From a virus (Duplodnaviria > Heunggongvirae > Uroviricota > Caudoviricetes), in IMG/VR virus record IMGVR_UViG_3300029241_000103, positions 1 through 4,074 of that record: 4,074 nucleotides of DNA; one strand, 5' to 3'. This document shows, in pieces, positions 1 to 4,074 of this stretch. Every line of letters begins with the position of its first letter. The stretch's first letter is position 1. Both the position numbers and the translations under genes were made by a program. The notes beneath the pieces were generated by a model. That model was not told the DNA's origin and ran no database searches. It saw only the letters and a list, made by a program, of their open reading frames with translations.

Positions 1-170
1 TGATGCCTGAAAAAACTGGTGTTTACTGGAATTCTCGGTTTAGCATTGCTCCTATGCTCGATAGGATGTACCGTTTTTGAAAAACAAGTAGTTATACACT
101 TTGTGGGAGCCTATTGGGAACCCGGTGTTTTCATTTCAAGGTGTAATCCATGCGGGGCATCAGAATGAGA

Positions 171-176
171 TATAAT
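171..176 (+). promoter_or_regulatory. Candidate sigma70 -10 hexamer (TATAAT) upstream of the 206..742 ORF
   Basis: Exact consensus TATAAT at 171-176, about 30 nt upstream of the ATG at 206. No good -35 is found at 16-18 bp spacing and there is no TG extension, so this is a -10 match only. Confidence 0.3.
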
Positions 177-205
177 GAGATTTTTAGTGTTCCGCTTGAG
201 AGTCT

Positions 206-742
206 ATGATGCTTACCCTAGACGAGATAGGTCAATCTGTACGTAACAATATCCAGTTGATTATTGATCATGTCGGCTTACCTCTTGCTGTTGGTCCGCT
301 CAGTGATGATGATTACAAGATTCTGTGTGGTGGCTATGGTGAGCTTGAATGGGACTATGCGTTAAGCACCTATGGCAACTCCAGAGAAAAGTATGAGTTC
401 TGCATAAAACTTGTTCAGCAAGGTCGGGTTCAGGGAATACCATCAGGAGCAGCAATTTGTGTTTATGGGGTTGAAGAAAACATCTTTCGTATCCATATGA
501 TCGAAAGGTTTTCTAGAGAAGATGAATCTCACCCATTGAAAGGGCGCATGGTTTTACTCACTCTTATGAGTGCTTTTATATTTTGTAAAGCTGTTGAATG
601 TAAAGTTGTCCACATTGTAGAGCCAGTACCAGAACTGGTGCAGTATTACGAGTCTTTTGGTTTCCGCATGGAACAGTGCGGTTATGTGATGTCTGCAGTC
701 ATTGATGAGCTGCAGGATATCTTTCTTAAATTTGCTCAGTAG
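206..742 (+). CDS. Hypothetical protein, 178 aa, with a GNAT-like C-terminal motif (possible divergent acyl/acetyltransferase fold)
   Basis: Uninterrupted ORF ending at TAG 740-742. A weak SD (GAGAG, 198-202) precedes tandem ATGs at 206 and 209; the spacing favours 209. The segment PELVQYYESFGF resembles GNAT motif B (A-x-x-x-Y-E-x-x-G-F), and the predicted strand/helix order fits a GNAT fold. The glycine-rich motif A (R/Q-x-x-G-x-G/A) is not clearly present (HPLKGRMVLL). Looks AT-richer than the phage genes by eye. Confidence 0.55.
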   Translation: MMLTLDEIGQSVRNNIQLIIDHVGLPLAVGPLSDDDYKILCGGYGELEWDYALSTYGNSREKYEFCIKLVQQGRVQGIPSGAAICVYGVEENIFRIHMIERFSREDESHPLKGRMVLLTLMSAFIFCKAVECKVVHIVEPVPELVQYYESFGFRMEQCGYVMSAVIDELQDIFLKFAQ

Positions 743-759
743 GTATAGACGAGAAGGGT

Positions 760-772
760 CTACAAATTGTAG
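760..772. promoter_or_regulatory. 13-bp palindrome CTACAAATTGTAG (6-bp arms, 1-nt centre), candidate protein-binding site
   Basis: Read directly: CTACAA (760-765), A, TTGTAG (767-772) is a perfect inverted repeat. It overlaps a 5-bp stem hairpin TAGAC-N7-GTCTA (746-762) just after the stop of the 206..742 ORF. Confidence 0.3.
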
Positions 773-847
773 GATACCCGTCCAGATTACCTTAAAGGTA
801 CATCTATGGCAGTCGTTTTGTGCTTAAACTACTAAGAAACGATGTCA

Positions 848-894
848 CCAATCGACATGATCGATTGGCATAAGTTAGCTAAACAAGCTAGCTT
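848..894 (+). promoter_or_regulatory. Candidate operator and promoter upstream of the small ORF
   Basis: Inverted repeat CCAATCGA-N5-TCGATTGG (848-868) overlaps a -35-like TTGGCA (865-870). After an 18-nt spacer comes a -10-like TAGCTT (889-894). The palindrome AGCTAGCT (886-893) lies in the spacer and -10 region. Confidence 0.3.
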
Positions 895-938
895 TAAAGA
901 GAGGGTTAGAGACGCCTTTACTGTCTCGGGAGTTTTCT

Positions 939-1112
939 ATGAAAGATCAAAAAGCAACCAAGCCACAGGTTAAGTTCGACACAATGAAAGCATTCGCAGG
1001 TATGGGTGCTGCTGTTGAAGTTCTGATGAAGGCTGCTCCTAATGCGTTCACTCACGCTACTGTCTCTGGTAAAGAGCAGCAGGGTAAGCTTCGTCGTCGC
1101 AAAGCAGCATGA
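939..1112 (+). CDS. Small hypothetical protein, 57 aa (MKDQKATKPQVKFDTMKAFAGMGAAVEVLMKAAPNAFTHATVSGKEQQGKLRRRKAA), basic C-terminal tail
   Basis: Not in the supplied ORF track (presumably below its length cutoff); translated by hand. ATG at 939 follows SD GGGAG (928-932) with a 6-nt spacer. Stop is TGA at 1110-1112. Codon choice is typical of well-expressed enterobacterial genes (GGT, GCT, CGT, GTT, CTG, AAA, GAA). An intrinsic terminator follows 23 nt downstream. Confidence 0.5.
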   Translation: MKDQKATKPQVKFDTMKAFAGMGAAVEVLMKAAPNAFTHATVSGKEQQGKLRRRKAA

Positions 1113-1131
1113 TCATAGCTGGTGCTTTTTG

Positions 1132-1160
1132 AAAACCCGCCTTTAGGCGGGTTTTTTCTT
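1132..1160. terminator. Rho-independent (intrinsic) terminator, probably bidirectional, between convergent genes
   Basis: Stem CCCGCC (1136-1141), loop TTTA, stem GGCGGG (1146-1151), then TTTTTT (1152-1157) on the plus strand. AAAA (1132-1135) precedes the stem, so the minus strand reads hairpin then TTTTC. The minus-strand gene's stop (TAA, 1160-1162) sits immediately upstream of the hairpin in that orientation. Confidence 0.8.
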
Positions 1161-1441
1161 TAGTGATGTTCTTTGCCCTTCTGTTTGCTTGTTCTGACCT
1201 GTTCCCACTCGATACGTCCTTCTTCTCGTCTTTTGTCTATGTATTCCGCAAGATCCTGAATATTGATGCAACGTTTTGCTTTTTGTGATGTGCCGATGCG
1301 ATATGTTGGAACGGGCAACTTACAAGCGTTTGCTTTTGCTTCTGCCGTGGCTGGACTCATGCCAAAGTACTTTTGGCTAACTGCTGAGAGTTCAATGTTA
1401 GGGGTATTGAATTCAGCCATCAGTAAAAACAAGGTGTTCAT
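1160..1441 (-). CDS. PrtN-family / excisionase-like small DNA-binding protein (about 93 aa)
   Basis: The N-terminus MNTLFLLMAEF... and the segment ...KLPVPTYRIGTSQKAKRCINIQDLAEYID match, from memory, the conserved pattern of PrtN (pyocin activator) / phage Xis-like proteins. Start chosen as ATG at 1441, preceded by GGAG with a 6-nt spacer. The longer GTG-initiated reading to 1468 was not used. Confidence 0.65.
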   Translation of the reverse strand: MNTLFLLMAEFNTPNIELSAVSQKYFGMSPATAEAKANACKLPVPTYRIGTSQKAKRCINIQDLAEYIDKRREEGRIEWEQVRTSKQKGKEHH

Positions 1442-1477
1442 AATTTTCTCCATCAAAACCGGCTGCACCCGGGAAAA

Positions 1478-2050
1478 TCATAATTCTGTGCTGGTGGCAG
1501 GAATTAATTTCTGCCAGATAGCGGAAACATATTTTGCCTGATGACGGGCATCGGCCAGGGCGTTGTGCCGTTCGCCATCGAAAGGCATGTCCATTTTGGG
1601 GTCGAATCCGATGGAACGCCCAAGCGTAACGATCGTGCGTACATCGTGGTCATTCCAGTATGCCCACGGGCAGATTTGTCCTGCTCGCTCATAAGCTCCA
1701 CGTAAAATTACGTTGTCGAAGGTGGCCCCGTTACCCCAGACTTTTAAATATTTCGTATTGGCTGCGTGCCGGTTAATGAAATGATTTAGTTCTGAGAGAG
1801 CATCGCTGATCGACAAAGTATCATCAATACAGATTGCAGCTCGTGCTTCAGGGCTTTGTTTCAACCACCACAGGATGGTATCGCCGTCAGGTGTAGCTCC
1901 TTGCCCCATAGCACTTTCCAGGCTAACAACTGTATAGAATTCTTGTCCGATGTCTCCGGTTTCTGGAGTGAAGAACACCGCGCCAATGGAAACGATCGGT
2001 GCATCCTTATTTTTCCCCATCGTCTCAAGGTCGATCATTAAGTTGTTCAT
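1478..2050 (-). CDS. DEDDh-type (DnaQ-like) 3'-5' exonuclease, phage-encoded, about 190 aa
   Basis: All three Exo motifs can be read: Exo I IDLETMG (D-x-E), Exo II WGNGATFDNVIL (FD), Exo III HNALADARH (H-x-x-x-x-D). Strong SD AGGAGGT lies 6 nt before the ATG at 2050. The ATG overlaps the upstream gene's TGA (minus strand reads TGATG). Confidence 0.85.
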   Translation of the reverse strand: MNNLMIDLETMGKNKDAPIVSIGAVFFTPETGDIGQEFYTVVSLESAMGQGATPDGDTILWWLKQSPEARAAICIDDTLSISDALSELNHFINRHAANTKYLKVWGNGATFDNVILRGAYERAGQICPWAYWNDHDVRTIVTLGRSIGFDPKMDMPFDGERHNALADARHQAKYVSAIWQKLIPATSTEL

Positions 2051-2826
2051 CACTTCACCTCCTGCGGCGGTTCCGGTAGCGGCATCCAGTGAGTTGCTTG
2101 CTCAATACCATTACCCGGCTTAATCGTTGCATCTCCGCGCCGAAAGGTGCTTCCGGTATAGCGTGCGGAGCATATTAGCGGTTCAACCAGAGAGCTATCG
2201 AAATTCACCGAAATAAGCACGTTCTGGCCCTTTTCAGGCATTCGCTCACTACAGCTTATCCAACCATCCGGAGTTACCGGAGAGTTGCCATTTACATCGA
2301 AGTTTGGCTCTGCGTCCTGAACCAGGAGGATGTAACCATTCTTGGCTGTATCAAGTTCTAACGCCTCGGTGACGGTGCCGAAATAGCGATTACCTAAATC
2401 AGCATCACAAGTGCTTACATCAATGGAAACTTCCATGCCTTCGATTAATTCTGGCAAGTTGTAAGTTTGGCTTACAGGTTGGCTACCCTGAAGCATGGCG
2501 GCACGGCAGGCGTTCCAGCCATCAGCATATGTTTCAGTTACACCGTCGAGATGGCAGGTAAGCAAATCCATTTCATCAAGCACTACCAGCGCTGGCGGCG
2601 CGGTGTAAAGCTGGTGCGTTCCATCAGGCAGCGAGTGACCTACATACTCACCGAACCCGTCAACACACATGCACCCATCCTCAATAATGCATGACGCCAC
2701 TGGCTCTGCTTCCAGCGATGCCAGTGCAATTTCATACGACCGGCGCTCAATATTGTCTCGAACGTCCAGGCTGCCTATGCGCTCTTTGATTTCTTTAATC
2801 AGTTCTTTGTCGGTGAAAGTTGTCAT
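2050..2826 (-). CDS. Phage protein with C-terminal DUF551 domain, 258 aa
   Basis: The C-terminal region WISCSERMPEKGQNVLIS...ATHWMPLPEPP matches the DUF551 hallmark (THWMPLPEPP) as I recall it from enterobacterial prophage proteins. ATG at 2826 with SD GAGGA about 7 nt upstream. The acidic, Cys-containing N-terminal 150 aa is unassigned. Confidence 0.75.
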   Translation of the reverse strand: MTTFTDKELIKEIKERIGSLDVRDNIERRSYEIALASLEAEPVASCIIEDGCMCVDGFGEYVGHSLPDGTHQLYTAPPALVVLDEMDLLTCHLDGVTETYADGWNACRAAMLQGSQPVSQTYNLPELIEGMEVSIDVSTCDADLGNRYFGTVTEALELDTAKNGYILLVQDAEPNFDVNGNSPVTPDGWISCSERMPEKGQNVLISVNFDSSLVEPLICSARYTGSTFRRGDATIKPGNGIEQATHWMPLPEPPQEVK

Positions 2827-2829
2827 GTG

Positions 2830-3117
2830 TTAGTCCTCATCCACTTCAACGTCATCTTTCAGCGTGATGCCGTGCCAATCATCAGCCCAACTGGTTAGCC
2901 CTGGCGCATCAATGCTAGGCATATAGACGCTTGCAGTGTGGTAGCCCTTATCGTTATCAATGCTGGCAACGTGCTCGCCGTTGTATGCGCTCAGCGTGTC
3001 CAGGACGCTATAAAACTTTCCTCCGGCTGCCCTGAAATCCTTTACAGCCTTCACAAGGCGATTCCACGCTTTTTCCTGTTCTGGCGTCAGGTCGATTAAT
3101 TCCTGCAAAGTTGCCAT
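2830..3117 (-). CDS. Hypothetical phage protein, 95 aa, strongly acidic C-terminus (…LKDDVEVDED)
   Basis: Start at ATG 3117, preceded by SD AAGGAGAG. It sits 1 nt after the TGA of the upstream gene (minus strand reads TGATATG). The longer track ORF (to 3279) would overlap the Ead/Ea22-like CDS in another frame and was rejected. Confidence 0.7.
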   Translation of the reverse strand: MATLQELIDLTPEQEKAWNRLVKAVKDFRAAGGKFYSVLDTLSAYNGEHVASIDNDKGYHTASVYMPSIDAPGLTSWADDWHGITLKDDVEVDED

Positions 3118-3118
3118 A

Positions 3119-3790
3119 TCACTCTCCTTTGATGCGAATGCCAGCGGCGCGCTCGGCTTCACTTTGTTCCCAAAACCACTTGTGAAGCGCCATAAGCTTT
3201 TCGTCAATCGGTGCATATTTGCGATTAAAGTAGGCCTGAGCATCTTTCTCAGATTCGTCCGGTAATTCGCCAGGGCCAAACAGTGTGTTATAAATCCATG
3301 CCAGTCCGCTTTTAGCGTCGCCAGTTGCCTGCCATTCGATAATGGCAGCCTGCATGACCAGAATGTTTTTCCCGATTAATAGGTCCAGTTCTTTGTACCG
3401 GTTGCGGATGTATGCATTCTCGCTTTGTAATTTTGCGTTGCGCTTCTCTGCGGCTTCCAGCTTGGCTTCTGCATCTTTGGCTCGCATCTGCCAGTTGATA
3501 GCGATGTCGATAACGCTGTTAGCACAACTGGACTCGTTCTCTTCGGCAGCTTTAGCTTCAGAAAGCTCATCAAGCAATCCAAGAACAACAGTTGGCGTGG
3601 CGAGCGTGATAAAACGCATATTGCTCATATGCTCTTCATCGCTAACATCATCGCCAGCCTCGACCGCTGCCATGTGCTGAACATAGCCGCTATCACAGGT
3701 ATTCCAGATTGCCCCTGCCTCGTGACCCCATTCACCATGTAGTGCTTTTTCTGCCGCCTCACGCAGTGCCTGGTAATTAATTTCGCTCAC
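3119..3790 (-). CDS. Ead/Ea22-like family phage protein, 223 aa, with central coiled-coil-like region
   Basis: The N-terminus MSEINYQALREAAEKALHGEW... resembles Ead/Ea22-like proteins of lambdoid prophages (from memory). The central segment EAKAAEE...AKDAEAKLEAAEKRNAKLQSENAYIRNRYKEL looks coiled-coil. Start is GTG at 3790, with a near-perfect SD AAGGAGG 6 nt upstream. GTG overlaps the upstream stop (GTGA). Confidence 0.7.
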   Translation of the reverse strand: MSEINYQALREAAEKALHGEWGHEAGAIWNTCDSGYVQHMAAVEAGDDVSDEEHMSNMRFITLATPTVVLGLLDELSEAKAAEENESSCANSVIDIAINWQMRAKDAEAKLEAAEKRNAKLQSENAYIRNRYKELDLLIGKNILVMQAAIIEWQATGDAKSGLAWIYNTLFGPGELPDESEKDAQAYFNRKYAPIDEKLMALHKWFWEQSEAERAAGIRIKGE

Positions 3791-4035
3791 TGGTTGCCTC
3801 CTTTACGGACTTTACGGATCTGCGCTGCGATGCGCGAAAAAAAAGACTCCCGCGTATGACTGTTAAGAGCTGGCGCGAACGCTGCGTTAAGAACGGCAGC
3901 ATCACAGCCGTCATCGATATAGAGCGCAATTTTTTTCTCCAGGCGCGCTTTGGCTTCCTGCAACTGCATACCCCGGCACGCACGCGGGATATACTCAGCA
4001 ATTTGAGCGATAGATTTTTCGTTCTGTTTAAACAT
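3787..4035 (-). CDS. Hypothetical phage protein, 82 aa
   Basis: ATG at 4035, preceded by SD GAGGTGA. Stop TGA (3789..3787) overlaps the GTG start of the next gene. Translation MFKQNEKSIAQIAEYIPRACRGMQLQ... has no family I can name. Confidence 0.6.
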   Translation of the reverse strand: MFKQNEKSIAQIAEYIPRACRGMQLQEAKARLEKKIALYIDDGCDAAVLNAAFAPALNSHTRESFFSRIAAQIRKVRKGGNQ

Positions 4036-4074
4036 GCTTCACCTCGATAGGCTTGATGGTGTCGATCAGTAGTC
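4028..4074 (-). CDS. 3' end of an upstream minus-strand CDS (partial; C-terminal residues …LLIDTIKPIEVKHV)
   Basis: One minus-strand frame is open from the window edge to TAA at 4030..4028, which overlaps codons 2-3 of the 82-aa gene (ATGTTTAA). Only 14 codons are visible, and a second frame is also open here, so the call is tentative. Confidence 0.3.
   Translation of the reverse strand, partial: LLIDTIKPIEVKHV

Follow-up and report, generated by a model that had tools for sequence, protein, structure and literature searches.

The stretch of DNA considered here, which we call the window, is 4,074 nucleotides (nt) long and comes from a virus of the class Caudoviricetes (IMG/VR record IMGVR_UViG_3300029241_000103, positions 1 to 4,074). 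Our subject is the cassette at 150-1160, which an earlier note on this DNA had described as a self-contained unit made up of a promoter, a GNAT-like open reading frame (ORF), palindromes, a small ORF, and a terminator; every one of these elements is present. Its two plus-strand genes are referred to here as gene A, encoding a protein with a predicted GNAT fold, and gene B, encoding a small basic protein. The comparisons below support the cassette as a mobile two-gene accessory unit (moron) of temperate Enterobacterales phages, and its slot position and some indirect genetics make it a candidate for a defence or toxin-like function.

Positions 1-1200 of the window are 97.8% identical to Enterobacteria phage mEp460, and hundreds of E. 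coli prophages also match. The annotated gene order in the matching records is integrase, partial dusA, two plus-strand hypothetical genes, and a leftward operon with the excisionase (PrtN family), 3'-5' exonuclease, DUF551, and Ead/Ea22 genes. The dusA piece corresponds in the window to a 5' ORF fragment at 3-80 on the plus strand (MPEKTGVYWNSRFSIAPMLDRMYRF*), recognized from its translation and from the partial tRNA-dihydrouridine synthase annotation in E. coli records; in mEp460, the integrase lies directly upstream of it. This dusA-like N-terminal fragment is the phage attachment (att) region and forms the left edge of a cargo slot. The right edge is the PrtN-family excisionase gene xis (1160-1468, minus strand; Pfam PF11112, E 4e-23), which the mEp460 record likewise calls an excisionase and with which the converging early-left operon begins. 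Taken together, the dusA fragment and the annotated gene order place the cassette between the att site of a dusA-integrating lambdoid phage and xis.

The cassette is indeed oriented against the phage operon, as the earlier note had it, and converges with xis and the early-left genes. The minus-strand content at 1478-4035 is typical of a lambdoid early-left region and encodes a protein with an Rv2179c-like 3'-5' exoribonuclease fold (E 4e-75), one with DUF551, one resembling Ead/Ea22, and the products of small unknown ORFs. The AT-richness of the cassette, originally judged by eye, was borne out by a windowed check: the GC content is 42.7% at 150-1160 vs 49.4% at 1161-4074, and the lowest value of any 1011-nt window inside the latter region is 48.2%. 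The composition of the cassette thus differs from that of the phage DNA beside it.

Gene A (209-742, plus strand) encodes an acidic protein of 177 amino acids (aa; isoelectric point, pI, 4.8) and is preceded by the Shine-Dalgarno (SD) sequence GAGAG at 198-202. The ORF listing places its start at 206; the SD spacing, the RefSeq annotation, and the homologues all favor the ATG at 209. No Pfam, NCBIfam, or PADLOC model matches protein A at E <= 1, a profile search of PDB sequences with it found no GNAT, and PHROGs assigns it to phrog_4350, a family of unknown function. Homologues with 39-100% identity are found across the Enterobacterales and Shewanella, a few of them bearing the UniRef name "N-acetyltransferase". 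The protein is under purifying selection, with nonsynonymous change (pN) at 0.06-0.26 vs synonymous change (pS) at 0.6-0.95.

It is the structure that identifies the fold. An AlphaFold2 model built from a 31-sequence alignment (pLDDT 93.6, pTM 0.90) has the mixed alpha/beta topology of the GNATs with an extra N-terminal helix and an extra C-terminal helix, and a Foldseek search of the PDB with this model returned 290 matches at E <= 0.001, essentially all of them GNATs, with TM-scores of 0.5-0.6 and identities of 6-17%. Because the matches are so uniform, the predicted GNAT fold of protein A is certain at the level of the fold, not of the subfamily. Among the best structural matches are the tRNA-acetylating toxins TacT3, TacT2, AtaT, and KacT; SpeG and aminoglycoside acetyltransferases are also among the fold matches, and a search of a viral structure library returned generic GNATs only. 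The label "GNAT-like" given to this ORF in the earlier note therefore stands through structure prediction and fold search only, the sequence profiles being silent.

Several residues of protein A are invariant in the 31 aligned sequences, among them E100 on strand beta-4, the segment H109-P110-L111-x-G113, and Y148 in YYESFGF. These are kept even in homologues of 42-49% identity, with a single distant homologue lacking G113. The HPLxG segment takes the place of the GNAT acetyl-CoA motif A (Q/R-x-x-G-x-G/A). When protein A was aligned with RimI using hhalign, only the motif-B segment aligned, YYESFGF to ALYESLGF. We regard E100 as the candidate general base, HPLxG as a candidate P-loop-like segment, and Y148 as the candidate motif-B tyrosine.

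Gene B (939-1112, plus strand), with its SD sequence GGGAG at 928-932, encodes a basic protein of 57 aa (pI 10.5) that has a helical core in its middle and ends in ...GKLRRRKAA. It has no Pfam domain, no PADLOC hit at E <= 1, and no family match other than phrog_2741, so for neither protein of the cassette does the sequence lead to a named family, as had been said of both before. The B family is tiny, with 12 clusters among 1.84 billion representative proteins. Its members share the core FDTxKAFAGMGAAVEVLMKAAP and a QGK/R motif, and in almost all of them the C-terminus closes with a basic run followed by Ala-Ala or Val-Ala. The protein has a net charge of about +8 and no hydrophobic stretch of transmembrane length, AlphaFold2 gives it two helices at low confidence when modeled alone (pLDDT 59.9), and no relative was found among solved structures, known antitoxins included.

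The coding signal in gene B is clear, with pN at 0.00-0.05 vs pS at 0.05-0.46, and its synonymous sites are about 10 times more conserved than those of gene A in the same cassettes. The fraction of E. coli-preferred codons (Fop) is 0.74 for gene B vs 0.46-0.56 for all other genes of the window, which suggests high expression; part of the constraint on synonymous sites may come from RNA structure. The C-terminus, basic residues and then Ala-Ala, looks like a ClpX signal of the ssrA or MuA type. From codon usage and this tail, we infer that protein B is both highly expressed and proteolytically labile. A 43-aa ORF at 842-973, which overlaps the start of gene B, was considered as a third gene and rejected: it has no family hits, and its ATG, situated in the loop of a conserved hairpin, is missing in relatives.

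Two promoters can be proposed. The -10 box that had been claimed for the unit is the TATAAT at 171-176 (plus strand), a candidate promoter element of gene A whose position is kept across cassette contexts; since it has no acceptable -35, it is missed by a sigma-70 consensus scan. All homologous cassettes, whatever the phage context, have a -10-like hexamer (TATAAT, TACAAT, TAAAAT, or TAGAAT) 30-45 nt 5' of the start of gene A, and in many copies an upstream terminator precedes the cassette. Read-through from the host dusA promoter into gene A seems possible in lysogens, for this promoter faces the cassette and 80-205 contains no predicted terminator.

The candidate internal promoter for gene B spans 746-775 on the plus strand and consists of TAGACG (746-751), 18 nt, and TAGGAT (770-775). 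TAGACG begins 4 nt past the stop codon of gene A in the window, and in many relatives the TAG stop codon of gene A supplies its first three bases. Both hexamers are invariant in 19 diverged cassettes, save one G/C position in the second, and their spacing is near-fixed (1 nt shorter in one relative) while the spacer sequence varies. The candidate has 8 of 12 consensus matches, which is below the threshold of the promoter scan. An alternative offered by RNAalifold, in which TAGAC pairs with GUCUC 5' of the SD sequence of gene B, competes with the promoter reading.

The palindromes of the earlier note lie in the 196-nt spacer between the two genes, and it can be regarded as firmly shown that they are plus-strand RNA hairpins forming a structured leader of gene B. 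This leader (782-938, plus strand), recognized by folding and covariation, has five hairpins at about 788-800, 807-847, 848-868, 873-893, and 909-927, directly followed by the SD sequence. The plus-strand fold of 782-945 has a minimum free energy (MFE) of -48.5 kcal/mol and a z of -3.78, with 0 of 200 shuffles as good, and the minus-strand fold is weaker (z -2.07). Structure beyond chance is accompanied by compensatory change. In 19 aligned cassettes whose A proteins are 65-100% identical, the hairpins persist in a spacer of diverged sequence. The covariation test (alignment A2) covered five helices, namely three leader hairpins, a long-range helix, and the terminator; the hairpins at 807-847 and 909-927 lay outside it. 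In the tested helices, 96% of cells are paired vs 29-51% in slid controls, and 10 pairs have changes on both sides vs 0-4 in the controls, a degree of covariation reached by 0 of 500 shuffles. The hairpins at 848-868 and 873-893 are the best supported and hold 6 of the 10 double-change pairs. Changes from C-G to U-G and from A-U to G-U are frequent, and these are compatible with plus-strand RNA only. A search of Rfam 15 gave no match in 743-938 at E <= 1, and the sub-threshold Rfam hits inside the cassette all fall over the 3' end of gene B and the terminator.

A tentative closing helix may join the two ends of the B transcript: 947-956 (TCAAAAAGCA), in codons 3-6 of gene B, and 1123-1132 (TGCTTTTTGA), just before the terminator, form a 10-nt perfect inverted repeat on the plus strand. 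RNAalifold lengthens this helix to 14 pairs, one of which has changed in a compensatory way, from A-U to G-C, in two sequences. The helix is missing from the window's own MFE fold and from the predictions for several distant cassettes, and we therefore rejected it as a universal feature. The strong intrinsic terminator that had been noticed is found by a terminator scan at 1131-1156 (plus strand) as an 11-bp stem with a 4-nt loop, followed by a T-run, and it shows compensatory changes in relatives. With the A-run on its other flank, it could act bidirectionally; it could also stop the leftward transcript that ends in xis, the stop codon of which is at 1160.

An ArcA-regulated small RNA, sRNA-17, has been reported from an mEp460-like prophage of E. 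coli K1 RS218 (PMC7719688). We considered whether it lies in the A-B spacer and rejected this, since the published primer and probe sequences are all missing from the window; sRNA-17 is thus elsewhere in the mEp460-like prophage.

The linkage of the two genes is strict. Gene B lies 90-250 nt 3' of gene A in 174 of 174 A-bearing loci (102/102 and 72/72), all 11 species-representative genome loci with gene A also have gene B (located by tblastn), and the most distant A-B pairs keep the same arrangement. Phages carry the pair at four or more positions that have nothing to do with one another. In E. coli and Salmonella it is in the dusA att-xis slot; Enterobacter, Hafnia, Edwardsiella, and phage Eeyore have it between the lysis genes and Q (or DUF968); in Photorhabdus it is inside the tail cluster of a myovirus; and in Shewanella it is at a prophage end. 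The hosts of cassette prophages include E. coli, Salmonella, Enterobacter, Citrobacter, Cronobacter, Edwardsiella, Hafnia, Photorhabdus, Xenorhabdus, and Shewanella. In E. coli, A-B was found in 356 of 5,426 complete genomes, among them O145, O111, and further lineages that produce Shiga toxin.

Two of these settings and one related unit deserve a closer look. In Escherichia phage Eeyore (PP925821; L237:4798-4959), a 53-aa B homologue (MEMKKERLFDT...QGRRRVREAA) lies 3' of the A homologue; it is unannotated in GenBank, where the record gives other short ORFs at that place. In Hafnia prophages (L021:2150-3109, L022:2051-3109), the interval from the Q antiterminator to the holin contains a toxSAS-like gene with a RelA_SpoT domain and, directly after it, A-B, which puts two candidate toxin or defence modules in one moron slot. 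The related unit, in Cronobacter prophages (L240:2167-2656), is not A-B but a B-like gene behind an unrelated 85-aa gene; it brings a hairpin and a terminator of its own and lies antiparallel between the genes for terminase and portal.

Sister dusA phages that have the same xis carry three alternative cargos between the att site and xis (the same slot can be seen at L246:222-1212, L248:308-1352, and L009:2486-3687). In addition to A-B in its 356 genomes, the slot of the 5,426 complete E. coli genomes holds PanA (190 aa)-PanT (139 aa)-B in 206, a second Panacea gene (DUF4065), partnered by one of 182 aa, in 79, and a YafO-family toxin (Pfam E 1.9e-21) together with a 179-aa gene in 48. The 562 B-bearing genomes are thus made up of the 356 with gene A and the 206 in which gene B stands behind PanAT. 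Far from being uniform core genes of related prophages, A-B is one cargo among several that are swapped. Variable presence at this exact position, the cassette's own -10 and terminator, and its deviant GC content agree with the moron or accessory-cargo layout that the earlier note had proposed.

Experiments have validated Panacea pairs as toxin-antitoxin systems (PMC8832971). With the Panacea and YafO pairs at the slot, three of the four cargos are recognizable toxin-antitoxin modules. The accessions of the validated E. coli PanAT were compared with those of the slot alleles and do not match. The idea that gene A is homologous to the 179-aa first gene of the YafO allele was likewise dropped, no homology being found. 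The PanA-PanT and YafO pairs agree with A-B in position, orientation, and size class, and one PanAT allele keeps both gene B and the terminator of A-B. The proteins, however, are unrelated to those of A-B, and in these pairs the antitoxin gene comes first and the two genes overlap or lie close together, unlike in A-B. The dusA att-xis junction of lambdoid phages is a swap site for toxin-antitoxin cargo and a practical place to seek further systems.

The PanAT-B copies offer a view of gene B after the loss of gene A. Among IMG/VR contigs, 48 of 120 that bear gene B carry a Panacea-domain gene and a 139-aa gene in place of gene A. The junction in PanAT-B copies lies 13 nt before the start of gene B, so that the leader is gone in the A-less copies. 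We compared B alleles within 6 nt of the window's gene B, with and without gene A upstream. Alleles with gene A show 9 synonymous and 3 nonsynonymous changes, and those without it 1 synonymous and 9 nonsynonymous (Fisher p = 0.0037). The changes in A-less copies reach the otherwise invariant K2, A20, K50, and A57, with K2E in all of them. Gene B thus appears to lose constraint once gene A is gone, which argues that A and B act together.

Three truncated or read-through B variants (P0080, P0092, P0053) bear the N-terminus MEDQ, the mark of the A-less context. Four further truncated or fused variants (P0086, P0060, P0089, P0091) are without MEDQ, and contig edges, gene calling, or assembly may have produced some of them as artefacts. 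A frameshifted gene A with an intact gene B recurs in independent samples, and the reverse, an intact gene A with a broken gene B, was not found in reliable assemblies. The genomes L238 and L239, the only candidates for the latter, were considered and rejected, as they have indels in both genes at about 98.3% identity; they are probably noisy assemblies and uninformative.

How, then, might the two proteins act? The reading that we favor, while holding it with somewhat less than even confidence, is that the cassette is a toxin-antitoxin-like or abortive-infection moron in which A is a GNAT effector and B its labile small partner. Gene B would be transcribed from its own promoter (TAGACG-N18-TAGGAT) and its product kept in large excess over A. 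Protein B, largely disordered alone, would bind and neutralize A and would be short-lived through its ClpX-type C-terminal signal. An infecting phage or stress would halt the synthesis of B and free A, which would then acetylate an essential target, either charged tRNA or, given the acidity of A, a basic protein, and growth or phage development would stop. The role of such a module would probably be abortive infection or phage exclusion in the lysogen. Direct binding of A and B is something that we infer here.

Several lines of evidence lead us to this toxin-antitoxin-like reading: the fold of A resembles that of tRNA-acetylating toxins and its candidate catalytic residues are invariant; A is always accompanied by B, and B drifts without A; the slot-mates are Panacea or YafO toxin-antitoxin pairs, and at its other positions the cassette occupies well-known moron sites, once next to a RelA_SpoT gene; B looks abundant but labile (Fop 0.74, pLDDT 60, basic-AA/VA tail); and frameshifts in gene A with an intact gene B recur. 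A number of observations point the other way. Protein A has no match in PADLOC or in any sequence profile, and its acidity (pI 4.8) is unexpected for a tRNA-binding toxin. The enzyme-first order, the gap of about 190 nt, and the probably separate promoters are unlike known GNAT toxin-antitoxin operons, B has no ribbon-helix-helix (RHH) or DUF1778 domain, and both promoters are consensus-level predictions. In the Cronobacter unit, the B-like gene, which is diverged and encodes 51 aa, has no Ala-Ala tail and lies 3' of an unrelated 85-aa phrog_11049 gene. Lastly, co-occurrence and drift would equally well fit B as a substrate of A, or A as the protein that neutralizes a toxic B.

It is this last pair of possibilities that provides the main rival, which we consider rather unlikely. 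Here, A would acetylate B at its N-terminus or lysines and the modified B would be the active form, or, in a type VII-like arrangement, A would detoxify a toxic B. In the enzyme-substrate version, acetylated B could bind ribosomes, nucleic acid, or a phage component and so bring about superinfection exclusion or host modulation. An acidic A and a basic, lysine-rich B would suit each other as enzyme and substrate, A resembles protein N-terminal acetyltransferases, and B, the expression of which looks far above that of A, would stand in the proportion expected of a substrate to its enzyme. That B always accompanies A and drifts after its loss would follow as well, and the K2E change of all A-less copies could inactivate a toxic B. 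Yet B has neither membrane-toxin character nor a known fold, and a degron-like Ala-Ala tail together with very high expression would be unusual in a toxin.

Two further readings are less likely than either the toxin-antitoxin or the enzyme-substrate reading. One, which we think decidedly unlikely, is that A is a resistance or detoxification enzyme that acetylates a small cationic molecule (an aminoglycoside, a polyamine, an aminoacyl-nucleotide microcin, or the like) and that B is a separate fellow traveller. Acidic GNATs such as SpeG and the aminoglycoside acetyltransferases are indeed among the fold matches, morons commonly carry host-fitness genes, and B, preceded by a putative promoter of its own, is found behind other genes too; but strict linkage over A proteins of 42-100% identity in four or more contexts would not be expected of unrelated genes, nor would the drift of B after the loss of A, and no NCBIfam model, resistance enzymes included, matches A. 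The other, very unlikely in our opinion, is counter-defence, in which A would acetylate and disable a host immune protein with B as helper or regulator. AcrVA5, a GNAT anti-CRISPR that acetylates Cas12a, is a precedent, the cassette is phage-borne, and in many phages it has a late location between Q and the lysis genes, where strong lytic transcription is expected. Against this, the unit is enclosed by a candidate promoter and a terminator of its own and in this window runs opposite to the early operon, a layout typical of prophage-expressed genes, its slot-mates are toxin-antitoxin modules rather than anti-defence genes, and the similarity is limited to the generic fold. Finally, gene B might not encode a protein at all; its ORF would be incidental, and 939-1160 would act as a structured RNA, either regulatory or small. 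One can see the attraction, since the synonymous sites of gene B are about 10 times more conserved than those of A and there is a structured leader with a possible 5'-3' closing helix. The strong SD sequence and the codon bias (Fop 0.74), however, explain much of the low synonymous divergence (dS), and no Rfam family matches beyond the terminator. With pN far below pS, and with the ORF, its length, and the C-terminal motif kept at about 30-50% protein identity, this idea is largely excluded, and we consider it extremely improbable.

A bolder form of the toxin-antitoxin-like reading is possible, if doubtful: the cassette would represent a previously unrecognized two-component class, in which an orphan-family GNAT and an abundant, protease-labile basic protein make up a new toxin-antitoxin or abortive-infection switch that might acetylate this small protein or a translation component, its output being set by a five-hairpin leader with no Rfam counterpart. 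The source annotations of both proteins read "hypothetical protein" only, and a literature search by protein accession and keyword found no study of the A-B pair. Should the cassette prove to be a module for defence or of the toxin-antitoxin kind, three things would be gained: a GNAT effector family invisible to Pfam and PADLOC, a new small partner protein, and a new structured mRNA leader.

The closest known systems are the type II toxin-antitoxin systems with GNAT toxins (TacAT, AtaRT, KacAT, and ItaRT). These are, like A-B, two-gene mobile modules, and they share with it the conserved motif-B tyrosine, for which Y148 is the candidate in A, and a small, seemingly partly disordered partner. 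Protein A, however, has no detectable sequence relation to their toxins or to any Pfam GNAT model. Their toxin acetylates aminoacyl-tRNA and so arrests growth, and their RHH/DUF1778 antitoxin, which binds the toxin directly and neutralizes it, is encoded immediately upstream in one operon, whereas upstream of gene A there is only the att region and gene B is downstream. A-B further differs in its reversed order, its structured spacer of 90-250 nt, its probably separate promoters, and the acidity of A. Lacking both the upstream RHH/DUF1778 antitoxin and membership in the sequence family, A-B is not a member of the GNAT-toxin type II family.

Type I mRNAs of the hok/sok type invite comparison on the RNA side, since the B mRNA likewise has a long structured leader and perhaps pairing between its coding start and 3' untranslated region. 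The hok/sok product is a hydrophobic membrane peptide, whereas B is basic and soluble-looking; hok/sok has an antisense RNA, and none was identified for gene B; and where hok/sok folds back 5' to 3', the long-range helix of A-B is not conserved in distant cassettes. The phage morons, as known from HK97 and HK022, are extra transcription units with a promoter and a terminator that lie between phage modules. A-B shares with them its own -10 and terminator, its deviant composition, its presence, absence, or replacement in otherwise collinear phages, and its standard slots. A moron, however, is defined by layout and not by function, and in A-B the unit is fixed at two genes and has a structured RNA within it.

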